A stretch of 62,600 nucleotides of DNA from positions 1 to 62,600 of the IMG/VR virus record IMGVR_UViG_3300006793_005371; one strand, given 5' to 3'. The notes beneath the pieces were generated by a model. The model was not told the origin of the DNA. It saw only the letters and a list, made by a program, of their open reading frames with translations, and did no database searches. Below, in pieces: positions 225 through 53,788 of this stretch. The translations under genes and the position numbers were made by a program. Position 1 is the stretch's first letter. Each line of letters begins with the position of its first letter. The stretch comes from a virus. Lineage: Duplodnaviria > Caudoviricetes.

Positions 225-544
225 TGATTAGCATATTGCAAGAAACAACCGATTGGGGCAAATTCAAAGTCAATAACGGCATTTATCATATAAATGGTGC
301 TGGTAGTTTAGTTGCATACCAAGTTAACCAAGATGCAGAAGTGCAAGTTCTTAAATCGCCTAGCAAACAATTTTCCAAGTCGCGAAGAAAATTTGTGAAG
401 ATTGGTGAGCGACCAGAAGAAGTTGCAAGTCATGTTATTGAAGTCAAAGGTTCTAAAGGTAATGTTTACTATGTGGACACAGAAAAGAACACTTGTACTT
501 GCCCAGGATTCACATTCCGAGGTAATTGTAAGCATATTAAATAA
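224..544 (+). CDS. SWIM zinc-finger protein
   Basis: C-terminal CTCPGFTFRGNCKH (CxC...CxH). Confidence 0.75.
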   Translation: MISILQETTDWGKFKVNNGIYHINGAGSLVAYQVNQDAEVQVLKSPSKQFSKSRRKFVKIGERPEEVASHVIEVKGSKGNVYYVDTEKNTCTCPGFTFRGNCKHIK

Positions 545-547
545 ATA
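542..547 (+). promoter_or_regulatory. T4-like late promoter core TAAATA, 5 nt before def ATG
   Basis: aTAAATActagtATG; same spacing recurs across window. Confidence 0.7.
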
Positions 548-552
548 CTAGT

Positions 553-1059
553 ATGTTAGTAGAACCAAATCACCAAGCATTACATATGAAGGCAGACGTT
601 GATCCGTTTACTGCTGACGATGTGAATTGGCCTGAACGACAAAAAGAAATGTTCCAACTTATGAGAGATAAGTTCGGTATAGGATTGGCCGCTCCACAGT
701 TAGGTGCTAGTTACAATATGTTTGTAATGAATCACACAACATTAGGTGACATAGGTGTTTACAATCCAGAAATTATTTCGCAGTCGGAAGAAACTGTATG
801 CCAGGAAGAAGGTTGTCTAACATTCCCTTTATTATTTTTTATGGTAACAAGACCTGCAAAATGCACAGTTAAGTTCTCTGATGCTTTCCAAGAAGAGCAT
901 ACACTAGAACTAGAAGGTACTGATGCTCAATGCTTTCAACACGAATTTGATCACTTACAGGGTAAGTTATTTTTAGAATATGCTAGTGACATGAAATTGC
1001 AAAGAGCAATGAAGAAACGTGAAAAGAGAGTAAAACAGTTATTAAAGATGCAGGCATAA
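553..1059 (+). CDS. def: Peptide deformylase
   Basis: GIGLAAPQ, EGCLT, QHEFDHLQG motifs. Confidence 0.97.
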   Translation: MLVEPNHQALHMKADVDPFTADDVNWPERQKEMFQLMRDKFGIGLAAPQLGASYNMFVMNHTTLGDIGVYNPEIISQSEETVCQEEGCLTFPLLFFMVTRPAKCTVKFSDAFQEEHTLELEGTDAQCFQHEFDHLQGKLFLEYASDMKLQRAMKKREKRVKQLLKMQA

Positions 1060-1067
1060 GGTAACTT

Positions 1068-1910
1068 ATGGACTATCCGTTTTTTGTTAATAACTTCGAC
1101 AGAGTTAAAGATCACAAATTAACCCATCCAGCAGTAAGCGAAATATTTAAACACCCTGTATCCTTCTGGTATGGGCAACGTAACGGTAGGAATTGTAAAG
1201 ACTTACACAAAGGCATACAACGTTTACTAAACCGTACATTGCCGCAACTACCAGTATTTGTTATATATAATTTGCCTTCAAGAGACATGGGACATTACAG
1301 TAAAGGCGGCGCAAGTGGAGAACAAGAATACTTAGACTTTTTATTTCAGTTCTGCAATGGAATTGGAGATCATAAACCTATAGTAATATTTGAGCCTGAT
1401 GCTTTACCTCATAGTACATTAATGGATAAGAACGATAAAGAGTTTCGTATTAGACTTATGAAAGCAGGTATTGATGTTTTAACACAGAACAGTAATGCTA
1501 TTGTGTACTTAGATATAGGACATAGTAATTGGTTAGAACCAGATGTAGCAGGCAAGTTAATTAACTCTGTTACTAACAAACATGTACGTGGCTTTAGTGT
1601 TAATGTAAGTAACTTTAGAACTACAGAAGAGAGCATTAAATGGGCTCTTAGAGTTACAGAGAACACGTCTAACAAACGTTTTGTCATTGACACTAGTCGT
1701 AATGGCAACGGCCCTTATGGAAACGAGTGGTGTAATCCTCCGGGAAGAGCACTAGGAATTCCACCTACTACAGATACAGGTGTAGAAGAATGTGATGCAT
1801 TTTTATGGATTAAGATACCTGGAGAATCAGATGGTACAGGTAATGGTGGTCCAAGAGCTGGAAAGTTTTGGCCTGAATATGGAAGTGAGTTAGTTTTAAA
1901 TAAAGTTTAA
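1068..1910 (+). CDS. Glycoside hydrolase family 6 (cellulase-like)
   Basis: VIYNLPSRD, FEPDAL, YLDIGHSNW, FVIDTSRNG, WCNPPGRALG, DAFLWIKIPGESDG. Confidence 0.95.
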   Translation: MDYPFFVNNFDRVKDHKLTHPAVSEIFKHPVSFWYGQRNGRNCKDLHKGIQRLLNRTLPQLPVFVIYNLPSRDMGHYSKGGASGEQEYLDFLFQFCNGIGDHKPIVIFEPDALPHSTLMDKNDKEFRIRLMKAGIDVLTQNSNAIVYLDIGHSNWLEPDVAGKLINSVTNKHVRGFSVNVSNFRTTEESIKWALRVTENTSNKRFVIDTSRNGNGPYGNEWCNPPGRALGIPPTTDTGVEECDAFLWIKIPGESDGTGNGGPRAGKFWPEYGSELVLNKV

Positions 1911-2320
1911 CTTACACCGCTTGGGTCTAATGGATCTGAGTCAACAGTATCTTGAGTACCGTCGCCAGTCATATCATCACCTGCTGGTACTTCTATGCTA
2001 TTTTCTAAGTAATGTTTAGCATCACTTATGTATACTCCTGCTTTGGTAATCTTTGACTGCCACCAATGAGGAAAGTCCGCATCTGGCAAATCATCTAGCA
2101 TTTTGTATAATTCAACACAGTAAGAACCCATTTGGAATAAGTCTCTTTTAACCATGTCTCTCTCGTTATCAACGTGTCCTACTGATAGTTTATCGTTTTC
2201 TTCATCACCAGCATCTCTTTCACTTACATCATATGAGTCAAGCAAAGTTGTTGAACGAGGCTGTTCTACTATGTTTGGTGTGATACCTGCAAGTTGTTGT
2301 AGTTTTTCAATTTCGTTCAT
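1907..2320 (-). CDS. Acidic hypothetical phage protein, possible internal head protein
   Basis: N-terminal IEKLQQLAGI motif shared with neighbour. Confidence 0.5.
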   Translation of the reverse strand: MNEIEKLQQLAGITPNIVEQPRSTTLLDSYDVSERDAGDEENDKLSVGHVDNERDMVKRDLFQMGSYCVELYKMLDDLPDADFPHWWQSKITKAGVYISDAKHYLENSIEVPAGDDMTGDGTQDTVDSDPLDPSGVS

Positions 2321-2321
2321 T

Positions 2322-4571
2322 TTATAATCCTGCTAATTTTTTAAGTTCTACCATTGTTTCTTCTAAAGCATTGTCTATTGCTTGATCAATTGATTCTTCT
2401 TGCTGTGCTGGATTCATACCTGGTAACTGTGGTTGATGTGGAGTTCTTTGTTGAACTGCCCCGTCAGATCCTTTACCTCTTGGTTGAATTTTTAATCCTA
2501 CTTGATCCAATATATTTTGTGTTACTCTTTCTTGTTTTCCCTGAGGACCTTTAATAAGAATATATGCTGGATTGTTTGGTGTTGGAGGAGCAACGGTTAC
2601 TAGTTTAGTTCCTTGCATTAGTCCTGGAACTTGCCCTAACATCATAACTTCTTTACCGCTTTTATCTAGTAATACATAGTCAGCATCTGGACCATCTAGT
2701 TCATCATTTCGGAAGTCGCCTTGCTGAAACTCATTAACTTCTTCATCTTCTGCGTACATGTCTGAAAGATCTAATGCTTCTGCTGGCTCACCGTGGTCTT
2801 TCCAATCTGCATCATCAACTAATGCTTCAATATATATTTGAATGCATTCATCTCTGTCATCATCTGCATGTAAACCTTTTTCTCTACAAATTTCGTTAAT
2901 TTCGTCGTCCAGTTCTTCCATTGAACAACCACATGCTATACAAAGTCCTTCTTCACCACCCTTTTGATAAGCATCAAATAGTTCATCATATGCTTGAGAT
3001 TCACGGCTTTGTTCTGCTTGTGGATCAAAACTTTCTTCCATTTCTGGTTCTTCGTCATCTTCTAGTTGTGCTTTAAGTTCGTCGTAGTCCCAAGTATCAC
3101 CGTATTCATCTTCAAATTCTTCTTTGCTCATTTGATCGACATCTATTAATACGTCTTTTAGTTTGCCTTCTTTAATATCTAAACCAGCCATTTGTCTCAT
3201 GTAGTTGAGATCGTCTTCTTCTTCAATTGCTTCTTCTGGGTTACCATATGTCTCACATGGATTCTTACCACAGCCACAATTCTTAGGCTCGTCTTTTTTG
3301 GCTTCCATTTCTAATTCATCTTCTGGTGCATCAAACTCTGGATCATCCATGCTTACCATTTCTGGCTCGTCCATGTCCATATCTGGTTCTGGTTGGTCAT
3401 CTAAATCATCAAAGTTATCTAGTTCTGCATCTTTTCTGTGCAATTCCATATTGTTGATTGCATTGTTTACTAGTGATATAGTCCATTTTTTGTCCTCATC
3501 ACCTAACGCCATTATGCCGCCTTCTGGCATGTTATCAATGATGTTACTTAATCTGTCACTAGCCGCAAATCCTTCATCGTCGTTTGCCAGTCTAGCATTA
3601 ATTTCACCTAGCACATATCCTGGAGATTGTGCTAATAGTTTTAAAAACATTTCTTTTTTAACTGCTGGATCGTTTATATCAGCACCATCTGGAAACTGAT
3701 TAGCCATGCTTCTATTTCTTTGTCTGCTGTTGATAGGCTTACCTGTGTCAACACTGATCATATCTTTAGGAGCAATTTTAGTAAAGCCTACTGAATTAGG
3801 ATCACTTGCCGCCGCCTTTGCAGGTCTTTCTGCAGAAGCCTTTTGATCTTTCTTACTAACACCAGGTTCATAGTCCATTGCACCCTTGCCTGGAGCAAAG
3901 TTAACTGGTGCTTCGTCGAGCAACCCTGCTAATTTTTTTAATGTTTCTAATGATTCTTTCATAATTTTACCTGTTATTTTGTCGTAAACCAAATCAAATA
4001 TTTCTTGGTTAAACTCTCCCATATACCTAGCATACGTTTGTTTAGCACTATCTAAGTCTGGAGCACTAAGTAATGCAGTTCTAAATGCACTTGCACTCGC
4101 TACATCTCCGCTTATGCCTGTAACAGTTGGTGCTTGTATCACATAACCGTGTTTTAGCATAGATTGTGCGTTATTAGTATTTATCACATCTGTGCCATTT
4201 TGTAGGTAACTATCAGAACCATCTTTTAAAGGTTTAAATGCAAACCTTGGACTTTCCTCCATATCCTTTTGTCCTACTGCAAAAAACAACGAATGTTGTT
4301 CTGCTGGAGTAAAGGTACTTGCATACGAATCCTTATTGTATAAGTTATTTCCTGCTGGTATGATAATTCTATCTTGAGGTATATCATGTTGCTGAGTCAT
4401 GATGCTGATTTTTTCTTGTGCATCAAATGGTGATTTACCTGCTTCTACTTTATTTGCTGTAGCAATATATACTTCTGCATCAGGATTATTAGATTGTAGT
4501 GTGCGAAACACTTCCGCATGATGCGGTAACATAGGTTGGAATCTACCTGGATATATAATAACCTTTTTCAT
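2322..4571 (-). CDS. Cytidyltransferase-like domain fused to long acidic region with LxxLAG repeats
   Basis: VIIYPGRFQPMLPHH (degenerate HIGH) and SASAFR; start placed at ATG 5 nt after TAAATA. Confidence 0.65.
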   Translation of the reverse strand: MKKVIIYPGRFQPMLPHHAEVFRTLQSNNPDAEVYIATANKVEAGKSPFDAQEKISIMTQQHDIPQDRIIIPAGNNLYNKDSYASTFTPAEQHSLFFAVGQKDMEESPRFAFKPLKDGSDSYLQNGTDVINTNNAQSMLKHGYVIQAPTVTGISGDVASASAFRTALLSAPDLDSAKQTYARYMGEFNQEIFDLVYDKITGKIMKESLETLKKLAGLLDEAPVNFAPGKGAMDYEPGVSKKDQKASAERPAKAAASDPNSVGFTKIAPKDMISVDTGKPINSRQRNRSMANQFPDGADINDPAVKKEMFLKLLAQSPGYVLGEINARLANDDEGFAASDRLSNIIDNMPEGGIMALGDEDKKWTISLVNNAINNMELHRKDAELDNFDDLDDQPEPDMDMDEPEMVSMDDPEFDAPEDELEMEAKKDEPKNCGCGKNPCETYGNPEEAIEEEDDLNYMRQMAGLDIKEGKLKDVLIDVDQMSKEEFEDEYGDTWDYDELKAQLEDDEEPEMEESFDPQAEQSRESQAYDELFDAYQKGGEEGLCIACGCSMEELDDEINEICREKGLHADDDRDECIQIYIEALVDDADWKDHGEPAEALDLSDMYAEDEEVNEFQQGDFRNDELDGPDADYVLLDKSGKEVMMLGQVPGLMQGTKLVTVAPPTPNNPAYILIKGPQGKQERVTQNILDQVGLKIQPRGKGSDGAVQQRTPHQPQLPGMNPAQQEESIDQAIDNALEETMVELKKLAGL

Positions 4572-4596
4572 ATTAGTATTTATCAGAAGTCGGTTA

Positions 4597-5124
4597 TTAC
4601 CCTTTCTCATACTTTACACCTACTATATGGTATCTGGTTTCCCAACCAAAGTTAATTGCACTATGCAATCCTGTGGTGTCTACTTGGTATGTACTACCTA
4701 CTTCTAAATGATACATTTTAGGTTGTGTAAGTTCATCAAAGAACATCATGTATGCATCGGGATTTGTTACCAGTGGTATGTGTAATCTTGTATTTCTTTT
4801 ACCATTATCGCTGTCTGAGTGTATGCTGTAGTTGGTATGAGAGTCTAGTTTTAATAATCTCCAACGTACATATTCAGGAAACTGATTTATTAATTCTTCA
4901 AAGTATGTGCCTTCTAGGCGTTTGTTTAGTGTGCAATATGCTTTTTCAGGAAATTGTAAATGTTTAATTTTACCTGTGCTTTCGTTCCATGCGTCATTGC
5001 CCAGCACACTAGTTAGTGTTATTTGATTTGGATTTGCAAAACCTACATCTTCAAGTAAGTCATCAAGTGATTGTTTTAATTTTTGAGGATCTGTTTGATA
5101 ATCAAGTTTAATAACATGTGACAT
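4597..5124 (-). CDS. Asp/Asn beta-hydroxylase-like 2OG-Fe(II) oxygenase
   Basis: IHSD...RLHIPLVTNPDA...HSAIN...RYHIV; TATAAATA 5 nt upstream. Confidence 0.8.
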   Translation of the reverse strand: MSHVIKLDYQTDPQKLKQSLDDLLEDVGFANPNQITLTSVLGNDAWNESTGKIKHLQFPEKAYCTLNKRLEGTYFEELINQFPEYVRWRLLKLDSHTNYSIHSDSDNGKRNTRLHIPLVTNPDAYMMFFDELTQPKMYHLEVGSTYQVDTTGLHSAINFGWETRYHIVGVKYEKG

Positions 5125-5132
5125 GCTACTAT

Positions 5133-7331
5133 TTATAGGATATTATTCCCACCAATACTTTTTGCCGGCCGGGGTAGGTGTCCAACTTTCGCCAAAACGT
5201 CTTGCTTGAGCACTTGGTGTTGAACGTGCCATCTGTTTTTTCTTTGTATGTTTAGTATTTTATCATGAGTAGGTGTACCTACTTTAAACTTCATTGGATA
5301 GTTTACCTGGTCTGTTGATTCCCACTCGTCGCCTTTTCTAATAAACTGGCGATCTACACCACCCATTTTAACAGTAACAATATCGTCACCGCCAACATCT
5401 TTTAATTTTCTTTCGTTTGTTGGTTCTGGTAATTTTGCTTGTTTTCTTAAAAAGTTCTCAACGTCTGTTCTATTAGGATCGTATTTTACTCTGTTAGTTT
5501 GGAAGTCTGGGTTAAACTTGATATTTAAGTTTATTAATGTTCTTTGGTCACCAGCATCTGCATATACATCTAAAGCATTATAATAATGTTTTGCTAAGTC
5601 TGAATCTTCGCCACCTTGTTGAACGTGAGCCTGTAAAGCCTTACCTAGATCGCCGTCTTTGGCTGTAGGAGCCAATGAGTTAATACCCAACAATCCCATA
5701 ATTAATGCACTAATACCAAGACCTTTTTTGATTGTATCTTTGATGCCTTCTTCAAGTTGTACTTCGTATTGATTAAGTGCAACATCTTTGTATAGTTCTG
5801 CTAGTTCTGGATTCTCACTTTGCAGTTCTGCATACAGTTCAAATGCATCTTGACCTTTAGGATCTTTAATAGACTTTTTAAGTAATTCCGCAACCTTCAT
5901 TTCATTTGCACTATTGTCTCTTGCTGGACTTAATTCTGTTATTCTTGTATTAGTCTTAGTAGGTCCTGCTGTAATACTTTCACCGGCATGCATAGCCGCC
6001 ATATGTTTTTTATATTTCTTAGTACCTTTTTTGTGTGGCGACTTACCTTCGGAGAAGTTTTTCAAAAAGTCACTAACAACTTCTACTGCTTGATGCTTGC
6101 CTATTTCTGGATACATTTGTCTAAGTATTTTAGGTAACTCAAATGCGTTATACCTTCCTGATTGCACATAGTCTTTATGTAACATTGGGATTAATTTGCT
6201 TAATTCTTCATTGCTTGGTGCTGATTTCTTATTCATTTGTTTCTCATCATGTTTGGCAATTTCTGCCCAATTTGGTAATCCGTCATCATTTTGAGTCATT
6301 TCACCTTCGTCACAACCGTAGTTGCCAAAGCCATAACACTCTGAACTTTCTTCTTCCTCACCGTCATCATTGATAAATGTTTCTTCACCGTCCATATAAC
6401 CCGAACCAGCACATTCTGGACATACACCATCTTTAATGTAGTCGTCCATAAAATTACCTTGTAATACATCTTGTAAATCGTTGTATGCTTCTATTCTTTC
6501 TTCAGCATCATAGTAAGCATCAGGTGTACCAATCATTCCTTCTTCTGCTTCTGGTATAATTCCTTTAGGGTCATTACGTTTGGGAGAAGTAGTTTGTCCA
6601 GTGCCACCGCACTTAGGACAATTAGGAACAGCACCAGATGATGTTACACAATCACATACTTGAGGATTGCCGCCTTCTGGTTTTGTGTGAGCATCTGCTC
6701 CAAACGGTTTCTTTATTTTGTTTTTACTGTGGTTACTATTAGTGTATGGACTTTCTGCCTCTATTGCGTTTCTTCTTTCACTGCCAGGAGCACCATGTTT
6801 AAGAGTACCACCGTCGCCTGCTAGTTGTCCTGTTTCTTGATGATATAGTTGTTTCATTTTTTCTAGAGTCTCAGGATTATCCATATCACCTAAAGTATAA
6901 GGAAACATAGCACCTTTGCCTTTGTCTTTTAACCAATTAATAAATTCTGCATCAATGGCAGGATTTAATAAACTTGCTTCGTTGTTTACACTTTCTTGAC
7001 CGTACTCTCTATCTAATTCTTCGTCATCAATCTTGTTTTTTAATGTACGAATTAAATCTTCAAATGGTTCTTCTAATCCGTATACCGCAGATTCTAAATT
7101 ATTTTTTGCTTGAAAAACAGCATTTTCTAAATACTCTACTTCTGCTTTAAGTTCTTCGCTGTTTAAATCATCCACAATTGAACCTACTGCTGTTATAATA
7201 TCAATAGCAGTATCGTCGTATTTGATGTTTTTGGTAGTTGCTCTGACTTGATCAAAGGCTAATTCAACCTTGTCTAATAAGGCCTCATCTTCTGGACTCT
7301 CTGATAAAACTACTATGTCTTTAAACTTCAT
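5133..7331 (-). CDS. Large acidic mosaic phage protein with CxxC motifs, possible internal head protein
   Basis: Long ORF; CPKCGG and CPECAG; start at ATG 5 nt after TAAATA. Confidence 0.55.
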   Translation of the reverse strand: MKFKDIVVLSESPEDEALLDKVELAFDQVRATTKNIKYDDTAIDIITAVGSIVDDLNSEELKAEVEYLENAVFQAKNNLESAVYGLEEPFEDLIRTLKNKIDDEELDREYGQESVNNEASLLNPAIDAEFINWLKDKGKGAMFPYTLGDMDNPETLEKMKQLYHQETGQLAGDGGTLKHGAPGSERRNAIEAESPYTNSNHSKNKIKKPFGADAHTKPEGGNPQVCDCVTSSGAVPNCPKCGGTGQTTSPKRNDPKGIIPEAEEGMIGTPDAYYDAEERIEAYNDLQDVLQGNFMDDYIKDGVCPECAGSGYMDGEETFINDDGEEEESSECYGFGNYGCDEGEMTQNDDGLPNWAEIAKHDEKQMNKKSAPSNEELSKLIPMLHKDYVQSGRYNAFELPKILRQMYPEIGKHQAVEVVSDFLKNFSEGKSPHKKGTKKYKKHMAAMHAGESITAGPTKTNTRITELSPARDNSANEMKVAELLKKSIKDPKGQDAFELYAELQSENPELAELYKDVALNQYEVQLEEGIKDTIKKGLGISALIMGLLGINSLAPTAKDGDLGKALQAHVQQGGEDSDLAKHYYNALDVYADAGDQRTLINLNIKFNPDFQTNRVKYDPNRTDVENFLRKQAKLPEPTNERKLKDVGGDDIVTVKMGGVDRQFIRKGDEWESTDQVNYPMKFKVGTPTHDKILNIQRKNRWHVQHQVLKQDVLAKVGHLPRPAKSIGGNNIL

Positions 7332-7364
7332 AGTAGTATTTATCAAAGAAAGGGAAAAATTATT

Positions 7365-7550
7365 TTATTTAGATTCTTCCTTGTATAATGTCCATGCACC
7401 GTAGAGTAATCCACCCCATGCGGCCCATTTGATTAATGGTGATGCCATAAGTGCTAGTAAACTAACTCCTATAATAACTCCACCATCCCATGATGTCCTT
7501 TCACCAATTCTGGCCATGACCCATGATTTTGCTAATGTTAAATAATTCAT
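7365..7550 (-). CDS. Small two-TM membrane protein
   Basis: Hydrophobic segments; AGGAG upstream. Confidence 0.65.
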   Translation of the reverse strand: MNYLTLAKSWVMARIGERTSWDGGVIIGVSLLALMASPLIKWAAWGGLLYGAWTLYKEESK

Positions 7551-9957: not shown

Positions 9958-11008
9958 CAATAACGTTAAAAGAATCGGTTTCTGTTGTAAATATTTAGAT
10001 GAGGACCAAACGCAAAAGCCTAAGGTACTTAAAGAAATACAGCAGAACTACACAGAAAGACAGACCACAGTAGCATGGTGTAACAGACAAGAACGTTCTG
10101 TTGCAGAAGATCGCTTACTAGAAATTGTACGTCACAACATGCAGAGTGCATACAACCTAGTAGAATATGTAGGCACATTGCCTGCTGAAAGGAGAATGGT
10201 CAGGTTAGGTAGCAATCAAATACCGATGGCAACACAACCCGACTGGCGTTATGTATTCGAAGATAAAACAGTACTTGCAGAACTTGAACGTGGATTCAGA
10301 AGAATTGGTGATCATGCTCGTGAGCGTGACGTTAAGCTCAGTTTTCATCCTGGTCAGTTTTGTGTCTTGGCTTCAGACAATCCTGACATAGTAGAGCGTA
10401 GCATTGACGAGTTCGAGTATCATGTGAACATGGCACGTTGGATGGGCTATGGCAAAGAGTTTCAAGACTTCAAGTGCAACATACATATATCAGGTAGAAA
10501 AGGTTACCAAGGCATTATTGATGTGCTACCTAGATTATCCCCCGAGGCTAGAAACATTATTACTATCGAGAATGACGAGATGTGTCATGGCTTAGACGCA
10601 AGTCTTATGCTGAAAGATCATGTTGCACTTGTTTTAGATATACACCACCACTGGATTAGAGATGAAGAATACATACAAGCGAATGATGACCGTGTTAAAA
10701 TGGTTATTGATAGTTGGCGTGGCGTCAGGCCTACTTTACATTACAGTTACAGCAGAGACGAATGGCTTGATCAATCAACACGAATTGATGAGACAACACG
10801 GCATAATGCCTTACACTCCATACCCGATCTACTAGAGTCAGGTGCTAAGAAGCAAAAACTAAGAGCACATTCTGACTACTATCCTAATGACGATGCTAAC
10901 GATTGGGCATTGACCTTCTTAGATTCTTTTGATATACAATGCGAGGCAAAGGCTAAGAATTTGGCTAGCCAGCAATTATATGATAGAGCATTACTCACCA
11001 ATAAATAG
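9950..11008 (+). CDS. uvsE: UV-damage endonuclease UvsE/UvdE
   Basis: RIGFCC, LSFHPGQFCVLAS, ITIENDE, LDIHHHW, AHSDY, CEAKAK. Confidence 0.93.
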   Translation: MFNNNVKRIGFCCKYLDEDQTQKPKVLKEIQQNYTERQTTVAWCNRQERSVAEDRLLEIVRHNMQSAYNLVEYVGTLPAERRMVRLGSNQIPMATQPDWRYVFEDKTVLAELERGFRRIGDHARERDVKLSFHPGQFCVLASDNPDIVERSIDEFEYHVNMARWMGYGKEFQDFKCNIHISGRKGYQGIIDVLPRLSPEARNIITIENDEMCHGLDASLMLKDHVALVLDIHHHWIRDEEYIQANDDRVKMVIDSWRGVRPTLHYSYSRDEWLDQSTRIDETTRHNALHSIPDLLESGAKKQKLRAHSDYYPNDDANDWALTFLDSFDIQCEAKAKNLASQQLYDRALLTNK

Positions 11009-12420: not shown

Positions 12421-12424
12421 AATT

Positions 12425-12542
12425 TGTGGCGCCACATAACTTTATTAAGTCTGGACAGATATTGCAGTACTCTTGTACTATGTAGCCTATTCTAAGAGGG
12501 AGGCAATATTTTATTTTGTTAGACTGAATTAAGTCTGTCCAT
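12425..12542 (-). ncRNA. Candidate ~120-nt structured small RNA
   Basis: TAAATA at 12548-12553 (minus); stems TGGACAGA/TCTGTCCA, ATATTGC/GCAATAT, AGTAC/GTACT. Confidence 0.45.
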
Positions 12543-12606
12543 ACTAATATTTACAAGAAACGTCAAAATTGACCGGAATATGGTATTTTTTAAGCCAAAT
12601 TTACGG

Positions 12607-12634
12607 TTGACAAACAATTAAAACAGTATATAAT
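12607..12634 (+). promoter_or_regulatory. sigma70-type promoter
   Basis: TTGACA-N16-TATAAT. Confidence 0.8.
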
Positions 12635-12653
12635 AGTACAAATAGGAAAAATT

Positions 12654-15627: not shown

Positions 15628-15657
15628 AAGTTTTCCCTTAGACGTAAGGGAGACTTT
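15628..15657. terminator. Hairpin between convergent units
   Basis: AAGTTTTCCCTTA-GACG-TAAGGGAGACTT. Confidence 0.6.
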
Positions 15658-16837
15658 AGTTTTTAGTTACTAGCCTCTCTGTGAGGGGTTTAGTGACTAA
15701 ACTTGCTAGAAACTCTACGTCATGTGATAATTTATAGTTATGTCTAACAATTTCTAAATTAGGTTCCTTTGAAACCATAACATCTATAACTGCTTCTATA
15801 CGCTCTGGACCAAATTCTAAATTGTCATACAATTCTGTGTACTCCATTATAAAACCTACATCAGTTAATGCATTGTTTAGTCCTGCAGGACCTATTGTGA
15901 GTATAGGCATTCCTGCCATCATTCCTTTAAATGTTTTTTCAGTGTTAAATTTTATGTGAGGATAAGTTTCACACGCAATTTTCCAAGTGTAGTTTCCTGC
16001 GTATCTTTTGTTTAGAGGAATGCAGTCTTTAAATAATTCTATTGTGCTATTAGGCAATACCTTAGGCAACTCATGTCTGTATGATCTAACAAACTTTTCT
16101 ACAAGTTCGGATTGTACAAGTGAATGCCCATATCTGCCCAACCCAACGTTAGGACTTTTAAAGTAATCACCCAACTTACCATCTTCATCAAAGTTAACAG
16201 TTAAACTCCAATCTACGTTGTGGTCTAGTAATTCTAGTTGAGCAAGTCTAGCCAATGTTGCAAGTCTACCAGGCCTAGGTTTATGATTTGGAAATAAACA
16301 TCTCTTAATTTTTTTGTTGTCTATGATACTTTCTGGTACTATGTTTCCTGTTCGCACAGCCTCCATATATGTAATCAATGGAAATATGTGCATACACATT
16401 GTTTCGTTACCAAACTCATCAAATGCGCCACTGGCATTTAATATTCTGTTATCATTTATTAATACTTTAGGTAAAAAATGTTCTACATGGTACCCGCCGT
16501 CTATATAATCATACACAATGATGTTATAAACACTTATCAGTGTTTCTCTAATTTTAGCAGATAACTCCATGAAGTCACTTGCACAAATTTCAAACCAAAA
16601 GTTGTCTAGTGGTTCTGTAACTTGCATTAACGCATCTACTGATATACCTTTTGCACCAAACCTTTCACCAAATGCTAGTCCTCTTTCTTTGCATTGTCTT
16701 TTTATAACATTGCCAAATTCTGGATTGTTATAGAAAATACCTATCAAACCTGGGTGATCCATTGCATCACTGAAAGCATATTCCAAAGTGTTGTATGTTT
16801 CTGATCTTGCTGTTGATATCTTTTCTAAGTGTATCAT
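15656..16837 (-). CDS. Hypothetical protein with glycosyltransferase-like C-terminus
   Basis: CET...NTEKTFKGMMAGMPILTIG resembles GT10-like TEK motif; start 5 nt after TAAATA. Confidence 0.5.
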   Translation of the reverse strand: MIHLEKISTARSETYNTLEYAFSDAMDHPGLIGIFYNNPEFGNVIKRQCKERGLAFGERFGAKGISVDALMQVTEPLDNFWFEICASDFMELSAKIRETLISVYNIIVYDYIDGGYHVEHFLPKVLINDNRILNASGAFDEFGNETMCMHIFPLITYMEAVRTGNIVPESIIDNKKIKRCLFPNHKPRPGRLATLARLAQLELLDHNVDWSLTVNFDEDGKLGDYFKSPNVGLGRYGHSLVQSELVEKFVRSYRHELPKVLPNSTIELFKDCIPLNKRYAGNYTWKIACETYPHIKFNTEKTFKGMMAGMPILTIGPAGLNNALTDVGFIMEYTELYDNLEFGPERIEAVIDVMVSKEPNLEIVRHNYKLSHDVEFLASLVTKPLTERLVTKN

Positions 16838-16905
16838 GCCTATATTTAGCATTAACATATACTAGAATTCTTGACTACTGGCATCAATATAGGATAAATA
16901 TGTAT

Positions 16906-18264
16906 ATGCTATTCGGATTATTAACATTATTTACAGCCTTGGCTATTGCCGGTGTAGCCGCATGGTTCAGTATAGTAGGTCTTATGACGTTCTTCCAAGG
17001 AGCGGCTATGAGTATTGCTGTTATGGCCGGTACACTTGAAGTTGGCAAATTAGTAACAGTAAGTTGGCTATATAGGTATTGGAAAGAAACTTCATTACTG
17101 GTTAAGATGTATTTGTCTACGGCAGTACTATTTTTAATGCTTATTACAAGCATAGGTATATTTGGCTATCTCAGTAAAGCACACCAGGAAGTATCTGGCA
17201 GTAGTGCAGATGCATTTGCTGTAGTAGAAAGAATTGATGGACAAATACTAAGAGAAGAAAATAAGATAGACATACTAGAAGACCGTATTACTAGTTTACA
17301 AACTGGTGGCGGATTAGATGTTAGTTCAAGTATACAGCAACAAGTATCTATAAGAGATGGCGCATGGGAAAGAGTACAAGGCGATATTGATTACGCACAA
17401 GGACAAATAGATAGGCTCAGAGACCAACTAGCAGTATTAGATAAAGCAGTAAACGATTTAAGAAACAAAGGTGTTGAAGTTATAGAAACTGATGCAGGTG
17501 GAACGTTCAGACGTGCCGAAACAGAAACCATCGATTATGTTGCACAGGCAAATGAACTATTTGAACAGCAATCACAACAACGTGCAGATATCAAAGAAGA
17601 TATTGACAAGCAACAAGCAAACATAGACAAGTATAGAGAACAAGCACAGGCAGACATAAACAATGCTAATGCAGAGATTAACAGGCTTAGAGAAAACAGT
17701 AGCACAGATCAAGATGAGATACTTGTAAAAATAGATGATTACAATAATCAAATAGATACAATATATGCAAACATTGTAGTAATCAAAGATGAGAAGTTTG
17801 AAGCAGAAAGTGTTGTTAGAAACATAGAGAAGGAAGTTGGACCAATCAAATATGTTGCCGAACTTATATATGGTGAAAGCGGGGAAGAAGTATTAGGACA
17901 AGCAATACGTTTGTTTATAATATTACTTGTTGTAGTATTTGATCCATTAGCAGTTATGTTACTTATTGCGGCCAACCAGACGTTGTTACGTTACGGAATC
18001 AACTTAGAAAAAACAGGACCAGATCCTCATTTTGTAGATGAGATACTCGACGATGATGATTTTGAAACTCAATCTAGAAAAATATATGGCGACAATATGC
18101 CAGATGTTCCCGAAGTCAAGGAAGTTATAGTAGAAAAAGAAGTTATAATAGAAAAGGAAGTTGAAAAAGAAATTGATATGAATGCTATTAAAACTCCTAG
18201 AGCAGTAAAGGCTCTTGAAAAAAAACTTAAGAAGAAATTAGACGATGACGGAACAAGAAGTTAA
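16906..18264 (+). CDS. Membrane protein with long coiled coil
   Basis: Three N-terminal TM segments, heptad Q/E/D region, TM with VVVFDPLAV; start 5 nt after TAAATA. Confidence 0.75.
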   Translation: MLFGLLTLFTALAIAGVAAWFSIVGLMTFFQGAAMSIAVMAGTLEVGKLVTVSWLYRYWKETSLLVKMYLSTAVLFLMLITSIGIFGYLSKAHQEVSGSSADAFAVVERIDGQILREENKIDILEDRITSLQTGGGLDVSSSIQQQVSIRDGAWERVQGDIDYAQGQIDRLRDQLAVLDKAVNDLRNKGVEVIETDAGGTFRRAETETIDYVAQANELFEQQSQQRADIKEDIDKQQANIDKYREQAQADINNANAEINRLRENSSTDQDEILVKIDDYNNQIDTIYANIVVIKDEKFEAESVVRNIEKEVGPIKYVAELIYGESGEEVLGQAIRLFIILLVVVFDPLAVMLLIAANQTLLRYGINLEKTGPDPHFVDEILDDDDFETQSRKIYGDNMPDVPEVKEVIVEKEVIIEKEVEKEIDMNAIKTPRAVKALEKKLKKKLDDDGTRS

Positions 18265-19042: not shown

Positions 19043-20320
19043 ATGCCAGATAATAAAAATCTGCAATGTAGTTTTTGCGGAAAAAATAGAGACAACGTAG
19101 ACAAACTTATTGCAGGTCCAAATGTTTACATTTGCAATGAATGTATCATATTGAGTTACGATATTGTAGTTTCAGCAGGTGAAACAAATGAAAATTCATT
19201 AAAGTTAGAGGACCTTCCTAATCCACAAGATATTAAACAGTTTCTAGATTCACATATAATTGCACATAACGATACCAAAGAACTGTTATCAGTTAGTGCT
19301 TATAATCATTATAAAAGAATACTAGGACAGACATCAATTGAAATAGATAAAACAAATGTACTATTAGTTGGTCCAACAGGAACAGGTAAAACATTGTTTG
19401 CTAAAACACTTGCTAAAAAATTACAAGTACCGTTCGCTATTGCTGATGCAACTACACTAACTGAAGCAGGATACGTTGGGGAAGACGTAGAGAGCGTCTT
19501 AGAGCGTCTGCTGAGCATTGCTGACTGGGACCTCGATAAAGCACAAAAGGGTATAGTTTACATAGACGAGATAGATAAAAAGGCCCGTAAGAGCGAATCT
19601 AACTCCTCTACACGCGATGTTAGTGGTGAGGGAGTACAACAAGCACTCTTAAGACTGATAGAAGGTACTATAGTTAAGATTAAAACAAGTAAGTCTAATA
19701 CTAAGTTTCAAGACAGCACAATAGAATTTGATACAAAAGACGTATTGTTTATATTAGGTGGTGCGTTTGTAGGACTAGACAAAATTGTTTCTAAAAACAT
19801 AACTAAAAATTCTCAAATAGGATTTGGCTCCAAACTTATTACAACCGAAGAAAAGAATACTATACTCAATCAAACAACACCTCAAGACATTGTACAATAT
19901 GGTCTTATACCTGAACTAGTTGGTAGGGTACCTGTTATAGCAGTACTTGAGGAATTAAACCAACAACATTTACGACAAATATTAGATACAGTTGATAACA
20001 ATATTGTTGATCAATACAAAGAACTTATAAGTCTTGATGATATAAATCTTAACATAGGTAAAGAGTATTTAGACGAAGTGGCAAAGATTGCCAGCAGGTC
20101 GGAGTTAGGTGCTAGAGGACTTAAGACGTTGATAGAGAATACATTATTGAGTATAATGTACAGGGCACCACTACTCAGAAAACAGGGTGTGAATGAGATA
20201 GAGTTTCATAAATATCCAGTAGAAGAACAAAATTTTCCATTATTAAAATACGATAATGGACAAACAGTGATAGACACTAACTATAGAATATACCGAGGAA
20301 TATATGGCAAACAAAAATAA
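19043..20320 (+). CDS. clpX: ATP-dependent Clp protease ATPase ClpX
   Basis: CSFCGK zinc finger, [48 protein letters not shown]. Confidence 0.97.
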
Positions 20321-20729
20321 CTGGGGCAAGAACACCGGGAACAACTTTAAAAAGTCGTTCAATAATAAGAAAGGTCCTAGAAAAGAAGAGAACTTTTTAG
20401 ATAAGTTCAAGGGTGCTAGTGTTGAAGTTAGAAACGGTGATGTTAATGGTGCTATCAGAAAACTAAAGAAAATTTTAGAAAATGCAGATAGGCAAAAAGA
20501 ATTAGCAAAACGAGAGTTTTACGAAAAGCCTAGTGCTAAACGTAAAAGACGAAAAGATGCCGCAATCAAAAGAACACAACGAGAAGAGAACAAAAAAATC
20601 TACTCAGGTGAGGCACCACTACAAGAAGTATCAGGGTTTGCGTTTATGAAATCCAAACGTAAGAGAAGGAAGTATTCAGATAAGAAGTCTGCTGTTGATA
20701 GACATCTTAGATCATCCGGTTTACGATAA
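20304..20729 (+). CDS. rpsU: Ribosomal protein bS21 with N- and C-terminal basic extensions
   Basis: VEVRNGDVNGAIRKLKK...KREFYEKPSAKRKR. Confidence 0.88.
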   Translation: MANKNNWGKNTGNNFKKSFNNKKGPRKEENFLDKFKGASVEVRNGDVNGAIRKLKKILENADRQKELAKREFYEKPSAKRKRRKDAAIKRTQREENKKIYSGEAPLQEVSGFAFMKSKRKRRKYSDKKSAVDRHLRSSGLR

Positions 20730-21509
20730 ATGTCAAAGATCGTTGTAGTCAGCGGCGGCTTTGATCCATTACATAGTGGACACATTAATTTATTAGAGTC
20801 AGCATCAGCGTATGGTGAAAAACTTGTTGTTTTAGTAAACAGTGATGACTGGCTAACAAGAAAGAAAGGCAGACCTTTTATGCCTTTTGAAGAACGTGCT
20901 TTAATCCTACAACGTATGGACATGGTTGATAATGTGTACGGGGTAGACGATGCAGACGGAAGTGTAACCAAAGGCTTGATAGATGTCAGGAATGCATTCG
21001 GACAACATCACGAATATGTCTTTTGTAACGGAGGTGATAGAAAGAAAGACAACATTCCAGAAATGTCAGTTGAAGGTTACAGTTTCGAATTTGCAGTTGG
21101 TGGAGATAACAAAGCCAACAGCAGTAGTTGGATCTTGAAAGAGTGGAAGTATCCAACCGAGCGCCGTGTGTGGGGAGAGTTTTCAGACTTGTTCCAAGAC
21201 ACGGCAGTAAAAGTAAAAGAACTAATTATAGAACCAGGTAAAGGGATAAGTTATCAAAGACACTTTAAACGTAGTGAATCTTGGTTTATCAGCAAAGGCG
21301 AGTGTGAAATTAAATATTCCCCGGGAGAACCTGAGCATTTTACAATACATCAATTAAAAACTGATGATTCTTTTACAGTTAAACGTGGAGATTGGCATCA
21401 GGTAATAAATAAAACTGATGGACCATGTCATATTATAGAAATACAATATGGCGAAGAAACAACTGAAGACGATATTGAACGTCTTGAGTATTACGACGGA
21501 GAGAAATGA
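20730..21509 (+). CDS. Cytidylyltransferase fused to mannose-6-P isomerase-type cupin
   Basis: SGGFDPLHSGH, NGGDR, NSSS; ERRVWG, SYQRHFKRSESW, IIEIQYG, EDDIER. Confidence 0.88.
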   Translation: MSKIVVVSGGFDPLHSGHINLLESASAYGEKLVVLVNSDDWLTRKKGRPFMPFEERALILQRMDMVDNVYGVDDADGSVTKGLIDVRNAFGQHHEYVFCNGGDRKKDNIPEMSVEGYSFEFAVGGDNKANSSSWILKEWKYPTERRVWGEFSDLFQDTAVKVKELIIEPGKGISYQRHFKRSESWFISKGECEIKYSPGEPEHFTIHQLKTDDSFTVKRGDWHQVINKTDGPCHIIEIQYGEETTEDDIERLEYYDGEK

Positions 21510-21955: not shown

Positions 21956-21961
21956 GGATAC

Positions 21962-22402: not shown

Positions 22403-22403
22403 C

Positions 22404-23675: not shown

Positions 23676-23690
23676 TAGATAAATATTATT

Positions 23691-27535: not shown

Positions 27536-27575
27536 TTTAAAAAGTATTATAACTTGCTTAATAAAGGAGAAAACA

Positions 27576-28076: not shown

Positions 28077-28102
28077 ACACTATCACATATATAAATAGAT
28101 GT

Positions 28103-41203: not shown

Positions 41204-41361
41204 CAGTACAAGATATACTACATGTTATACTTGGTACAATACTATGCGCCGGCATGCTTAAGGCTGTATGGATATCAACAATCATCAATGATGAACGAAA
41301 GCAAAGATATAGAGACGGCACACATGATTATTACGGAAATAGAATCGAGGAGGATGAATGA
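41191..41361 (+). CDS. Small membrane protein (56 aa)
   Basis: Manual translation; GAGG RBS; ATGA coupling to nfuA. Confidence 0.5.
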   Translation: MSAITVQDILHVILGTILCAGMLKAVWISTIINDERKQRYRDGTHDYYGNRIEEDE

Positions 41362-41957
41362 CAACAATAACACTAGATGAATATAGTATAACTGTAACTG
41401 AACCAGCCCAGATGTATTTGGCTGAACTACTATCTAAGCAAGATGATGTTATTGGTGTACGTTTATATGTTGACAAAGCAGGTACTCCTAAAGCAGAAAC
41501 ATTATTAACATATTGTAGAGAAGGTAATCACGATGGTACAGTACTTCGTGAGTTTGAACACTTGAACGTGTACCTCGATGAGCAAAGTATTAAGTTCTTA
41601 CATGAAGCAACTGTTAATTATGATCAAGAAGAATACGGTGGAAGTCTAACAATAAAAGCACCTAACAGTAAACTACCTAGACTAGGTGAAGATGCCTCAC
41701 TAGAAGAAAAAGTTAATTATGTATTATGGAATGATGTAAACCCAGGTATTGCCGCACACGGTGGCGAGTGCAACTTAGTTGAAATCACAGAAGACAAAGT
41801 TGCAATACTAAGTTTTGGTGGAGGGTGCCAAGGTTGTGCCCAAGTTGATGTAACTCTTAAATATGGTGTTGAAAAGCAACTAATGGATGAACTTCCAGAA
41901 TTAACAGGTGTTAAAGATGTTACTGACCACAGTGACACATCTAATGCCTTTTATTAA
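41358..41957 (+). CDS. nfuA: Fe-S biogenesis protein NfuA
   Basis: GTPKAE, LTIKAPN, NPGIAAHGG, FGGGCQGC, VKDVTDH. Confidence 0.95.
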   Translation: MTTITLDEYSITVTEPAQMYLAELLSKQDDVIGVRLYVDKAGTPKAETLLTYCREGNHDGTVLREFEHLNVYLDEQSIKFLHEATVNYDQEEYGGSLTIKAPNSKLPRLGEDASLEEKVNYVLWNDVNPGIAAHGGECNLVEITEDKVAILSFGGGCQGCAQVDVTLKYGVEKQLMDELPELTGVKDVTDHSDTSNAFY

Positions 41958-44987: not shown

Positions 44988-45078
44988 GATCACTAATTAA
45001 TATGGCAATCATTGTGCAGGTACTAATAATTATATCAGTATTTGCCATGATACAAACAATGTGAATATAAGTAGTAGT

Positions 45079-45300
45079 ATGAAAAAAAGCACTACACAGA
45101 TGACAAAAGCAGAGCTATTTACTGTTCTTAAAGAAAAGGACGAAGTAATAGCAAATCTAAATGCACGAGTGGACGAACTAGAAAACCTTGCTATAGAAAG
45201 TAGAGCTATTCCTATGGATGCTGACGGTAGTCGATTGCTCACGTTAATGAATCAAAAAATTAAAGCACTAGAGGAAACAGTAAATGGCCTTACCAAATAA
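45079..45300 (+). CDS. Small coiled-coil protein
   Basis: Heptad pattern; TATAAGTA 5 nt before ATG. Confidence 0.55.
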   Translation: MKKSTTQMTKAELFTVLKEKDEVIANLNARVDELENLAIESRAIPMDADGSRLLTLMNQKIKALEETVNGLTK

Positions 45301-51333: not shown

Positions 51334-51349
51334 TTTAATTTACTCGAGT

Positions 51350-51848: not shown

Positions 51849-51873
51849 AAGGCTCACTAAGTGGGCCTTTTTT
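51849..51873 (+). terminator. Intrinsic terminator
   Basis: AAGGCTCAC-TAA-GTGGGCCTTTTTT. Confidence 0.8.
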
Positions 51874-51897
51874 ATGACTCTACTAATAAATATCTAT

Positions 51898-52293
51898 ATG
51901 CTTGAAACCTTAGAACAAATACGTCAAACAGTAAGAGACTTTAACAGCCAGAGCCAGTTTAATGATTGGTTAATGGCAGTTGGTAAGCAGGCAGACAAAT
52001 CTAACAGCAGAGAAGTATGCGTAAATGCAAATTATGTTAGAGGTTGTACAAGCAACGTTTGGATAGCAGGAACACAAAAAGAATCCAAATGGTACTTTAA
52101 TTTTTACAGTAACACAATGTTTACTAATGGTATAGCATACATACTATGTGATACTATCGGTGGTAAAACAGTCGACCAAGTTAACCAAATAGAATACAAC
52201 GACTACAAATTTCTTGGAACTAATTTATCACTAGCAAAGAAGCAAGGCTTACAGGCAATGCTCAACCAAATAAAAAACATTGCTAATGCTTGA
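51898..52293 (+). CDS. sufE: SufE/CsdE-like sulfur acceptor
   Basis: NYVRGCTSNVWI motif; start 5 nt after TAAATA. Confidence 0.8.
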   Translation: MLETLEQIRQTVRDFNSQSQFNDWLMAVGKQADKSNSREVCVNANYVRGCTSNVWIAGTQKESKWYFNFYSNTMFTNGIAYILCDTIGGKTVDQVNQIEYNDYKFLGTNLSLAKKQGLQAMLNQIKNIANA

Positions 52294-52318
52294 CATTAAG
52301 CAATTTAGCATGTATAAT
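52290..52318 (+). promoter_or_regulatory. sigma70-type promoter for clpP
   Basis: TTGACA-N17-TATAAT, GGAG RBS. Confidence 0.8.
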
Positions 52319-52345
52319 ATGTGAAACAAAACTAACGGAGATAAC

Positions 52346-52933
52346 ATGAACTTTGTACCATATGTAATTGAGAAAACAGCACAAGGCGAGAGAAGTTACG
52401 ACATTTACAGCAGACTATTAAAAGAACGAATTGTGTTTCTTAATGGACAAGTTGATGATGGTGTATCGAACAGCATTTGTGCCCAACTATTATTTTTAGA
52501 AGCAGAAGATCAAGATGCTGATATCAGTTTTTATATTAACTCACCAGGCGGTGTAGTAACATCAGGCATGGCTATGTACGACACAATGCAATACATTAAG
52601 CCAGACGTATCAACTATTGTAATGGGACAAGCGGCTTCGATGGGAAGTCTACTAGCACAGGCAGGTGCGGCAGGCAAACGTTTCGTACTACCTAAAGCAA
52701 GAACAATGATTCACCAACCATCAGGTGGTGCTCAAGGAATGGCATCTGATATTGCTATTCAGTATGCTGAAATTGAACGTATGAAAAAAGACCTTACTGA
52801 AATTTATGTAAAGCATAATAGTAAGGGTAAAACTTATGCAGAATTTGAAGCAGGTATGGATAGAGATAATTTCTTATCAGCTCAAGAGGCTATTGATTGG
52901 GGACTGGCAGACGAGATAGTTGAGAAAAGGTAG
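52346..52933 (+). CDS. clpP: Clp protease proteolytic subunit
   Basis: [38 protein letters not shown]. Confidence 0.98.
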
Positions 52934-53427
52934 TGGGAGAAGTTAACCTACGTTTTAATGTATTATCACTATCAGATATTGTATCAGTATTTAAAGAATA
53001 CAAAGAACTACCTAATACCGTTGTAATAGATGGTGTTGCCAAAGACAGGCATTGGCCTAGTTTTGTAGGACATTTCTTACTAAGCAAGTTTACTGAAGAA
53101 GAATTGCAAAATGCATGGAACCAAACTAAAAAGCATCTACCACCGTGTGAGCTAGTTGAAGCAAGAGTATTAAAGTATAGTACCACTAGTCATATTCCAG
53201 CACACAAAGACCAACACGAATTCGAAGAATCAGACCTAAGTGTTATAGTACAACTAAATCATCCAGATGATTATGTAGGCGGAGAGTTGATAGTTGAAGG
53301 GCATTTAATGGAACTAAAACAAGGAGATATGGTGTATTACGATTACAATACAATGCATGGAGTACACAGAATAAAGCAAGGTAGTCGTTATGTACTTAAT
53401 TTTCGATGCAAAACGGTTAAATACTAG
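52933..53427 (+). CDS. 2OG-Fe(II) oxygenase
   Basis: HKD, YVGGEL, HGVHRIKQGSRY. Confidence 0.85.
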   Translation: MGEVNLRFNVLSLSDIVSVFKEYKELPNTVVIDGVAKDRHWPSFVGHFLLSKFTEEELQNAWNQTKKHLPPCELVEARVLKYSTTSHIPAHKDQHEFEESDLSVIVQLNHPDDYVGGELIVEGHLMELKQGDMVYYDYNTMHGVHRIKQGSRYVLNFRCKTVKY

Positions 53428-53428
53428 T

Positions 53429-53788
53429 ATGCAAACATTCGATCCAAAAAAAGAACTTATAACCATAACGCCGAGTGCTCAGGTTCACTTCAAACAAGTA
53501 GCAGAAGAGAGCAATGTACACGGCATTCGATTAAAACTAACAGGAGGAGGTTGCGCCGGATTTGCTTACGAATGGGAAATGGTAGAGGATACATCATCAG
53601 TAAGATTAGATGAATTTACTATAGCATTCGAAGGATGGAGTTTTTACTTAGATAACATGAGTAAACCTTATCTTATAGGCAGTACTGTAGACAAGAAAAC
53701 TAGTATAGCAGGTAACATGATTGAGATATCATCGCCACTTGCTGAAAGTACTTGTGGATGTGGTGAGAGCGTAACGTTTAATATATAA
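53429..53788 (+). CDS. iscA: A-type Fe-S carrier (IscA/SufA/HesB)
   Basis: GGGCAGFAY and CGCGES; start 5 nt after TAAATA. Confidence 0.9.
   Translation: MQTFDPKKELITITPSAQVHFKQVAEESNVHGIRLKLTGGGCAGFAYEWEMVEDTSSVRLDEFTIAFEGWSFYLDNMSKPYLIGSTVDKKTSIAGNMIEISSPLAESTCGCGESVTFNI

Follow-up and report, generated by a model that had tools for sequence, protein, structure and literature searches.

The window analysed here (the whole stretch of DNA under study, IMG/VR virus record IMGVR_UViG_3300006793_005371) is a single linear viral contig of 62.6 kb, in which the hexamer TAAATA repeatedly stands exactly five nucleotides (nt) before an ATG (TAAATA-N5-ATG, hereafter box-N5). Our data show that this arrangement is a real conserved sequence feature found throughout a clade of related phages. 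The sequences probably reflect a design in which T4-type late promoters, together with some sigma70 promoters, are fused to start codons and would give leaderless messages. The (G/T/C/A)ATAAATA box would be the clade's T4-type late promoter, -10-like and without a -35 element, presumably recognised by a gp55-type sigma on the RNA polymerase of the host. In about a dozen genes of the window, and in 6–16 per related contig, the fixed start of transcription (the sixth base after the box) would coincide with the A of the ATG, and the transcript would begin with AUG, having neither a leader nor a Shine-Dalgarno (SD) sequence. One 8-bp element would set both the transcription start and the translation start. 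The box often lies inside or just past the upstream gene, and at two window sites its TAA is that gene's stop codon.

As the window is a single contig, the genome-wide test was made on the window together with its relatives. Within the window there are 12 exact matches to TAAATA-N5-ATG versus 1.88 expected from 100 dinucleotide-preserving shuffles (standard deviation 1.34, maximum 5), none of which reached 12. Among the 83 TAAATA hexamers on both strands an ATG follows at spacer 5 in 12 cases, while each of the 39 other spacers in the range 0–39 has 0–6 (mean 1.9), and spacer 5 is the sole peak of the spacing histogram. The counts were made from raw ATGs and the length of open reading frames (ORFs), with no gene caller involved. 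Ten of the twelve matches head ORFs of 98–749 amino acids (aa), and these are the ten sites that a first-pass annotation of the window had listed, all of which are present; they are given here together with a terminator-like hairpin that precedes one of them:

542–555, plus strand: TAAATA box, CTAGT and ATG of def (gene 553–1059); the preceding ORF, 224–544, terminates at the TAA of the box.
4569–4582, minus strand: GATAAATA box, CTAAT and ATG of a gene for a 749-aa protein (2322–4571) with an N-terminal cytidylyltransferase-like stretch; the longest ORF begins at 4610, 13 codons upstream.
5122–5135, minus strand: TATAAATA box, GTAGC and ATG of a gene for a 175-aa Asp/Arg-hydroxylase-like protein (4597–5124); the TAA of the box (5133–5135) doubles as the stop of the upstream 732-aa gene.
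7329–7342, minus strand: GATAAATA box, CTACT and ATG of a gene for a 732-aa protein (5133–7331); box-N5 is kept in 2 of 3 homologues found in relatives.
16835–16848, minus strand: CTAAATA box, TAGGC and ATG of a gene for a 393-aa protein (15656–16837), one half of a divergent pair; box-N5 is kept in 4 of 4 homologues.
16893–16908, plus strand: GATAAATA box, TGTAT and ATG of a gene for a 452-aa protein (16906–18264), the partner of the preceding gene in the divergent pair; among homologues GATAAATA stands at spacers 5–9.
23680–23693, plus strand: GATAAATA box, TTATT and ATG of iscU (23691–24119); the Pfam match runs from residue 2.
28092–28105, plus strand: TATAAATA box, GATGT and ATG of clpS (28103–28399).
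51851–51873, plus strand: terminator-like hairpin GGCTCACTAAGTGGGCC followed by T6, ending 13 nt before the sufE box.
51887–51900, plus strand: AATAAATA box, TCTAT and ATG of sufE (51898–52293); a longer ORF start at 51874 adjoins the terminator T-run.
53418–53431, plus strand: TTAAATA box, CTAGT and ATG of an iscA-like gene (53429–53788); the box lies within the 3' end of the preceding 2OG-Fe(II) oxygenase gene.

A variant hexamer and a case with a longer spacer are likewise as that annotation had described them:

45068–45081, plus strand: variant TAAGTA box, GTAGT and ATG of a 73-aa ORF (45079–45300); TAAGTA at N5 also heads an iscA homologue in one related contig (G005).
30639–30653, minus strand: TAAATA, six nt and ATG of a GNAT acetyltransferase gene (30177–30641), with a predicted 1-nt leader.

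It had also been claimed that no SD sequence fits into the gap, and indeed none of the 5-nt spacers, among which CTAGT occurs twice, holds an SD core; GG is found only at 16837- (TAGGC). The phage does use SD sequences, since an SD word (AAGG, AGGA, GGAG, GAGG or AGGT) is present at -17 to -4 in 46 of the 98 window ORFs of at least 50 aa. The box-linked ATG is the first possible start of its ORF at four of the ten genes (553, 5124-, 23691 and 28103). For the other six, and for the variant site 45079, a longer ORF start is available 5–37 codons upstream. In the divergent pair 16837-/16906+, which shares a 68-bp intergenic region, the longer versions of the two ORFs would overlap head to head, and of the 73 loci matched by the 452-aa protein (16906+) in tblastn searches, 42 align from the first residue of the short version onwards. 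The suspicion that the ORF track places several starts too far upstream was thus well founded, as it concerns seven window genes.

The same search with the 452-aa protein supplied 73 related IMG/VR loci for the comparison. When 1182 distinct TAAATA contexts from these loci and the window were pooled, ATG was found at spacer 5 in 127 and at other spacers in 11–51, and with an ORF of at least 60 codons required in 105 versus 0–23; these pooled counts include homologous sites of related phages and measure conservation, not independent events. Five separate related contigs show the same peak, with 10 (G001), 16 (G002), 10 (G003), 9 (G004) and 6 (G005) ORF-heading spacer-5 sites and 0–4 at other spacers. 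In an unbiased hexamer-by-offset scan of 8712 ATG contexts (ORFs of at least 80 codons) TAAATA at spacer 5 ranks first (141 sites, 10.8-fold), above SD words such as TAGGAG at 6 (45 sites) and AGGAGA at 5 (53 sites). Spacing of the box is exact to one base, while SD words spread over spacers 5–8. There are secondary box peaks at N6 (16 sites) and N8 (19 sites), and the N5 peak is 7–9 times larger. Homologues of the 452-aa gene fall into 44 distinct upstream contexts, 23 with a GATAAATA-like box and 21, more distant, without it; in the former the spacer is 5 in 10, 6 in 3, 7 in 2, 8 in 7 and 9 in 1. Orthologues of iscU and clpS alternate between SD-led and box-N5 starts among relatives (loci L014, L035, G001–G005 and others), so the SD and box designs interconvert.

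The geometry of these sites matches a start of transcription at the start codon itself. In the T4 gp55 open complex, as described in a passage of PMC7892883, the adenines at -12, -9 and -8 are flipped; TATAAATA would accordingly span -13 to -6, and box plus five nt would set +1 on the A of the ATG, as had been argued from the T4 late box in the first-pass annotation. Base -1 is a pyrimidine at 137 of 141 box-N5 sites and a purine at 4, compared with a purine at 87 of 225 starts led by AGGAG. Among 18 sites of the N8 class, 15 have A as the sixth base past the box, a position that the search leaves free. Start codons at box-N5 sites are almost exclusively ATG (ATG 141, GTG 1, TTG 4, CTG 0), and those of AGGAG-led genes are more varied (ATG 221, GTG 15, TTG 16, CTG 6). 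With the TAAATA core fixed by the search, A is present at -12 in 93 of 141 sites, and -13 is variable (G 50, A 36, T 31, C 24). The ATG is the first possible start of the ORF in 95 of 141 box-N5 genes versus 176 of 225 SD-led ones. The first 45 nt fold less stably at box-N5 sites (mean -3.1 versus -4.4 kcal/mol for SD-led genes), where GC is lower too. A is found at +4 in 62 of 141 sites, a figure that is not striking and stands without a control.

We looked for a -35 element as well: TTGAC lies at -36/-35 in only 3 of 140 sites, and no base is conserved from -25 to -14. Dual early/late promoters as a general design are rejected on that count. One of these three sites is the 16906 box, with TTGACT at 16871–16876, 17 nt upstream of the ATAAAT in the box, a word kept in the closest relatives; this box may be a dual early/late promoter. 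A hairpin with a T-run stands directly upstream of 7 of 63 box-N5 sites, sufE of the window included, versus 4 of 153 AGGAG-led starts, and at 19 of 140 sites the nearest 200 nt contain no end of an ORF on the same strand. Together with the divergent pair in 68 bp, these terminators and missing upstream genes argue that a promoter is needed at box-N5 sites.

The reading of the box as a late promoter is supported by two of the related contigs, G001 and G002. These are marine T4-like phages, 80–83% complete, with portals 54–58% identical to those of Melnitz, Mosig and cyanomyoviruses, and both encode gp55 (phrog_234, E 2e-58 and 2e-60); G002 additionally encodes the gp45 clamp and gp44/62. In these two phages box-N5 heads genes for portal gp20 (both phages), gp2, a baseplate wedge subunit, a minor coat protein and tail-fibre assembly proteins, as well as a NifU-like gene; those of G002 include portal gp20, gp2, the minor coat protein and a tail-fibre assembly gene. 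A box with a 22–39-nt leader and an SD sequence heads gp22, gp18, gp13 and a gp6-like wedge gene, and the major head gene starts behind an SD sequence, the nearest 48 nt being free of the box. Virion structural proteins stand behind the box in G003–G005 too. The extended motif is also found in the leadered class, 16–35 nt upstream of SD-led genes, where A occupies the position one before the box in 64 of 104 cases and G the position two before it in 44 of 104.

Promoters of another type share this geometry. In 236 TTGAC-N-TAnAAT promoters of the clade, the distances between the -10 element and an ORF ATG show two modes, a sharp one of 37 promoters at exactly 6 nt and a broad hump over 19–36 nt; the 6-nt peak lies at the sigma70 distance and would again place +1 on the A. 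Since the same clade sets sigma70-type promoters 6 nt before ATGs, leaderless expression, as judged from sequence, is a general habit of these phages that extends beyond late genes. In G002, TATAAT-N6-ATG heads gp43, uvsY and gp55 itself. The gp55 gene of G002 (loci L107–L114; L111:17128–17682, minus strand) is headed by the sigma70-like TTACA-N17-TATAAT-N6-ATG, and its message is predicted from this to be a leaderless early or middle one. In the window, two perfect sigma70-type promoters abut start codons:

56113–56151, plus strand: TTGACA-N17-TATAAT, 7 nt and ATG (56149) of a gene for a 156-aa PolIII-alpha-like fragment.
61133–61169, plus strand: TTGACA-N17-TATAAT, 5 nt and ATG (61167) of a gene for a 178-aa short-chain dehydrogenase-like protein.

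The first-pass annotation had concluded that many late mRNAs of this phage are leaderless. Several independent lines of sequence evidence support the leaderless core of that statement: clade-wide conservation, the pyrimidine at -1, the near-exclusive use of ATG, the missing -35 element, upstream terminators and divergent genes, sigma70 promoters placed alike, and the use of the box for late virion genes by relatives that encode gp55. The word late does not carry over so well, being extrapolated for the metabolic genes of the window, and sigma70 promoters abut starts there too (56149 and 61167).

Both halves of the design have known counterparts. Boxes of the TAAATA type are T4 late promoters (as given in a passage of PMC2988020), and the clade resembles T4 in the 8-bp -10-like box with its TAAATA core, A at -12, the lack of a -35 element, pyrimidine at -1 and purine at +1 at the sixth base after the box, and the presence of virion genes behind it in gp55-encoding relatives. 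It differs in that the dominant spacing is 5 nt and position -13 is variable where T4 has T. In T4 itself, where the gp55 sigma works with the co-activator gp33 and the gp45 sliding clamp, ATAAATA never comes within 11 nt of an ORF ATG; the spacings cluster at 21–29 nt (hump 20–29), and the leaders contain SD sequences. In cyanomyoviruses (S-PM2, Syn9 and others) NATAAATA is the relaxed late-promoter box upstream of T4 late-gene homologues, according to part of PMC2984593. Marine T4-like phages (Kyanoviridae), including Melnitz and Mosig, have the same NATAAATA box before T4 late-gene homologues, but in Melnitz, Mosig, S-SSM5 and P-RSM4 the portal box is followed by roughly 25–35 nt, and an SD word can be seen in Melnitz and in Mosig. 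S-SSM5 has no ATAAATA within 8 nt of an ORF ATG and shows a cluster near 24 nt. Rak2-like jumbo phages (CBB, GAP32) share the ATAAATA motif: in CBB, which encodes a gp55-like sigma, the consensus ATAAATA followed by A/T-rich sequence occurs at 35 places before structural genes (from a passage of PMC5259590). In contrast to the clade, TAAATA does not abut starts in CBB or PA5oct. The main text of the PA5oct omics paper, as far as it bears on promoters, gives only the sigma70-like TATAATA/TTGAC type and nothing on late boxes or leaders.

Counted against a reversed-pattern control, box-N5 shows no excess in T4 (10 versus 5), PA5oct (15 versus 12), CBB (4 versus 10), Atu_ph07 (15 versus 9), Melnitz (5 versus 3), S-SSM5 (3 versus 2) and P-RSM4 (4 versus 4). 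Mosig has a weak version of the design (11 versus 3, six ORF-heading sites), and Melnitz has three ORF-heading sites. The six Mosig genes start at 106670-, 60328-, 24964-, 92996-, 60990+ and 94129+. The leaderless side is reminiscent of PRM of lambda cI and of the leaderless class of GeneMarkS-2, which covers Actinobacteria and Deinococcus: in all of them a -10 element is fixed a few bases before the ATG, there is no SD sequence, and AUG is required. The TTGACA-N17-TATAAT-N6-ATG sites of the clade are exactly of the lambda cI PRM kind; unlike these, the late class uses a phage -10-like box without a -35 element and not a cellular sigma70 promoter. A remark in the AR9 paper has it that phage transcripts are often leaderless. 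In the literature searched (full texts, with supplements and subscription journals outside the search) we found no description of T4-type late boxes abutting start codons and none of leaderless late genes in T4-like, jumbo or marine phages; text matches to "leaderless" in three phage papers are GeneMarkS-2 entries in the reference lists only.

It should be noted that several observations speak against promoters fused to start codons, or at least limit this view. Translation in the leaderless mode would presume a host with that capacity; phage ClpX compared with prokaryote genomes is about 50% identical to proteins of many phyla and gives no host signal. The window genes behind the box are metabolic (def, iscU, clpS, sufE, iscA) or without assigned function, none of them being recognised as a virion gene, and their lateness is an extrapolation. 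A gp55-like sigma, which the first-pass annotation had proposed to look for, was found in the more distant G001 and G002 but not in the window or in nine closer-relative fragments. Specifically, there was no gp55 or sigma match among the window proteins scanned, the window being a fragment from which absence does not follow. Likewise phrog_234 was not found in eight closer-relative fragments, each 18–37% complete, where again absence is not implied, and the related model phrog_12791 was not found in five fragments, among them a ninth one that is 47% complete. RNA-library data were available as assembled contigs from five runs, with small shares; in the four runs compared with the window these are short low-depth pieces that say nothing about 5' ends. 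One contig (run X20, 7140–7387, 2 differences) extends 56 nt upstream across the predicted 7331 start; read-through transcription may thus also cover this gene, or there is DNA in the library. At 39 of 140 sites the preceding ORF stops within the box or spacer or overlaps the start codon, and termination-reinitiation could also act at these. The spacers of 5–9 among orthologues of the 452-aa gene would give some messages with leaders of 1–4 nt instead of none. Finally, the pooled counts, being shared among homologous sites, are no tally of separate events.

These points lead to other ways of reading the pattern. If the box is a late promoter but transcription starts a few bases off the A, messages would have leaders of 1–5 nt, or a 5' end inside the start codon, and initiation would use a nearby codon or a non-standard mechanism. 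The variable spacers of orthologues and the secondary N6 and N8 peaks fit such an offset, and the start distance is borrowed from T4 with E. coli RNA polymerase, not from the host of this phage. Still, we consider an offset unlikely in view of the dominance of N5 over both minor peaks, the pyrimidine at -1 and A at +1, which both the N5 and the N8 class have at the T4 distance, and the sigma70 class, whose peak lies exactly where +1 would fall on the A as well.

A different possibility is that TAAATA-N5 is a translation signal and not a promoter, acting on longer polycistronic mRNAs as an A/U-rich non-SD ribosome-binding or enhancer element or as a stop-restart context. The box TAA is an upstream same-strand stop at 27 of 140 sites, a stop lies elsewhere in the box or spacer at 9, and the upstream ORF overlaps the start at 3. 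The RNA-library contig across 7331 would suit this as well, and iscU and clpS orthologues swap SD and box as if the two were interchangeable start signals. At 101 of 140 sites, however, the upstream stop is at least 12 nt away or absent, and stop-restart coupling as the sole explanation is rejected for this reason. Spacing exact to one base differs from the spread of SD words over 5–8, and the pyrimidine at -1 and near-exclusive ATG are features of a transcription start and a 5'-AUG, not of a ribosome-binding site. Some sites have terminators or divergent genes directly upstream. The same extended box occurs 16–35 nt before SD-led genes and stands before late genes with leaders in T4, cyanophages, Melnitz and Mosig, and undoubted sigma70 promoters share the abutting geometry. 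Taken together this makes a pure translation signal quite improbable. In the window, 553 and 5124- have a stop, a promoter and the following start packed in 14 nt, and stop-restart coupling could contribute at these two sites.

That the pattern is a product of composition or chance in an AT-rich genome, or a by-product of ORF calling, is next to impossible and is already refuted by shuffles and controls. In its favour, the two window matches that head no gene equal the 1.9 expected; against it, no shuffle reaches 12, the peak is confined to a single spacer and recurs in five other contigs, T4, PA5oct, CBB, Atu_ph07, S-SSM5 and P-RSM4 have no such excess, and the counting relies on raw ATGs and ORF length. 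The two matches concerned (9999+ and 12542-), both beyond the ten sites listed earlier, are:

9988–10001, plus strand: match without a gene, opening a 24-aa ORF in another frame within the 5' end of uvdE; taken as chance.
12540–12553, minus strand: match with a 7-aa ORF only, in a 233-bp gene-free gap (12421–12653); a chance match, or else a candidate late promoter of some small or antisense RNA.

Returning to promoters fused to start codons, the first-pass annotation had linked them to a translation-initiation programme made up of phage-encoded bS21, bL33 and Def. Two of the genes are there as named, Def with a match of 123.8 bits and bS21 with 49.5 bits (cut-off 27). The name bL33 is tentative, as the gene 14186–14395 matches Pfam Ribosomal_L33 at 20.6 bits, under the cut-off of 25 (E 5.7e-4). 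The bS21 gene is the following:

20304–20729, plus strand: phage bS21 homologue of 141 aa, with the S21 domain at residues 39–90; its own start is led by a GAGGA SD sequence.

bS21 is encoded in all five related contigs G001–G005 and also in Melnitz and Mosig, and it was not found in the S-SSM5, P-RSM4 and T4 records. We found no support for the programme, and a link between bS21 and the leaderless design is rejected: Melnitz has bS21 without the design, the association is confounded by relatedness, and according to a preprint on lambda cI (PMC10491246) ribosomes without uS2 and bS21 translate leaderless mRNA better. A more elaborate idea, which we regard as unlikely, is that the fusion works as a combined transcription and translation switch. 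In an operon, a gene lacking an SD sequence would yield no protein from read-through RNA and would be expressed only once its own 8-bp late box fired and gave a message with AUG at the 5' end. The timing of Fe-S assembly, Clp and Def to late infection would follow from the transcription start alone, and phage bS21, present in all six contigs that have the design, would shift host ribosomes between the SD-led and the 5'-AUG class of message during infection.

Taken singly, T4-type late promoters and leaderless mRNAs belong to textbook knowledge; it is their systematic fusion across a widespread uncultured clade of aquatic myoviruses that is new relative to the literature searched. If the design operates as proposed, the temporal class of a gene could be told from its sequence, with the auxiliary Fe-S, Clp and Def genes assigned to the late class. 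Annotated starts could be corrected, including those of the seven window genes with a longer and probably wrong ORF start. Because the design is used for portal, gp2 and baseplate genes, virion production would require hosts that translate 5'-AUG messages well enough. It would also mean that 8 bp can stand in for promoter and ribosome-binding site together, a point that bears on the streamlining of genomes and on minimal expression cassettes. The design is open to testing in culture, because Pelagibacter phage Mosig has six such genes.

The window has a G+C content of 37% and encodes four tRNAs. It is rich in auxiliary genes, among them def, a GH6 hydrolase, uvdE, nadE and a GMP-reductase/IMPDH-type enzyme. 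It also has bS21, clpX, clpP, clpS and hsp20, next to two iscS-type desulfurases, iscU, nifU, an iscA-like gene, sufE, ferritin and cytochrome c. Apart from bS21, the genes just named make up an Fe-S and proteostasis set that is unusually complete for a phage and is spread over 19043–24119, 28103–29604, 41358–41957 and 51898–53788. A stretch of about 610 bp (26966–27576) holds no ORF of at least 60 aa and no Rfam match at the gathering score. The sole component of a T4 late or replication apparatus recognised in the window lies at its very end:

61863–62600, plus strand: T4 gp44-type clamp-loader gene, truncated by the contig end (phrog_168, E 3e-72).

Nearest relatives of this clamp loader (53.7%) are found in jumbo phages of the PA5oct type (Rak2-like group). 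Close relatives of similar length to the window score 18–37% complete by CheckV, so the window phage is probably itself a jumbo phage, with a genome of roughly 300 kb.

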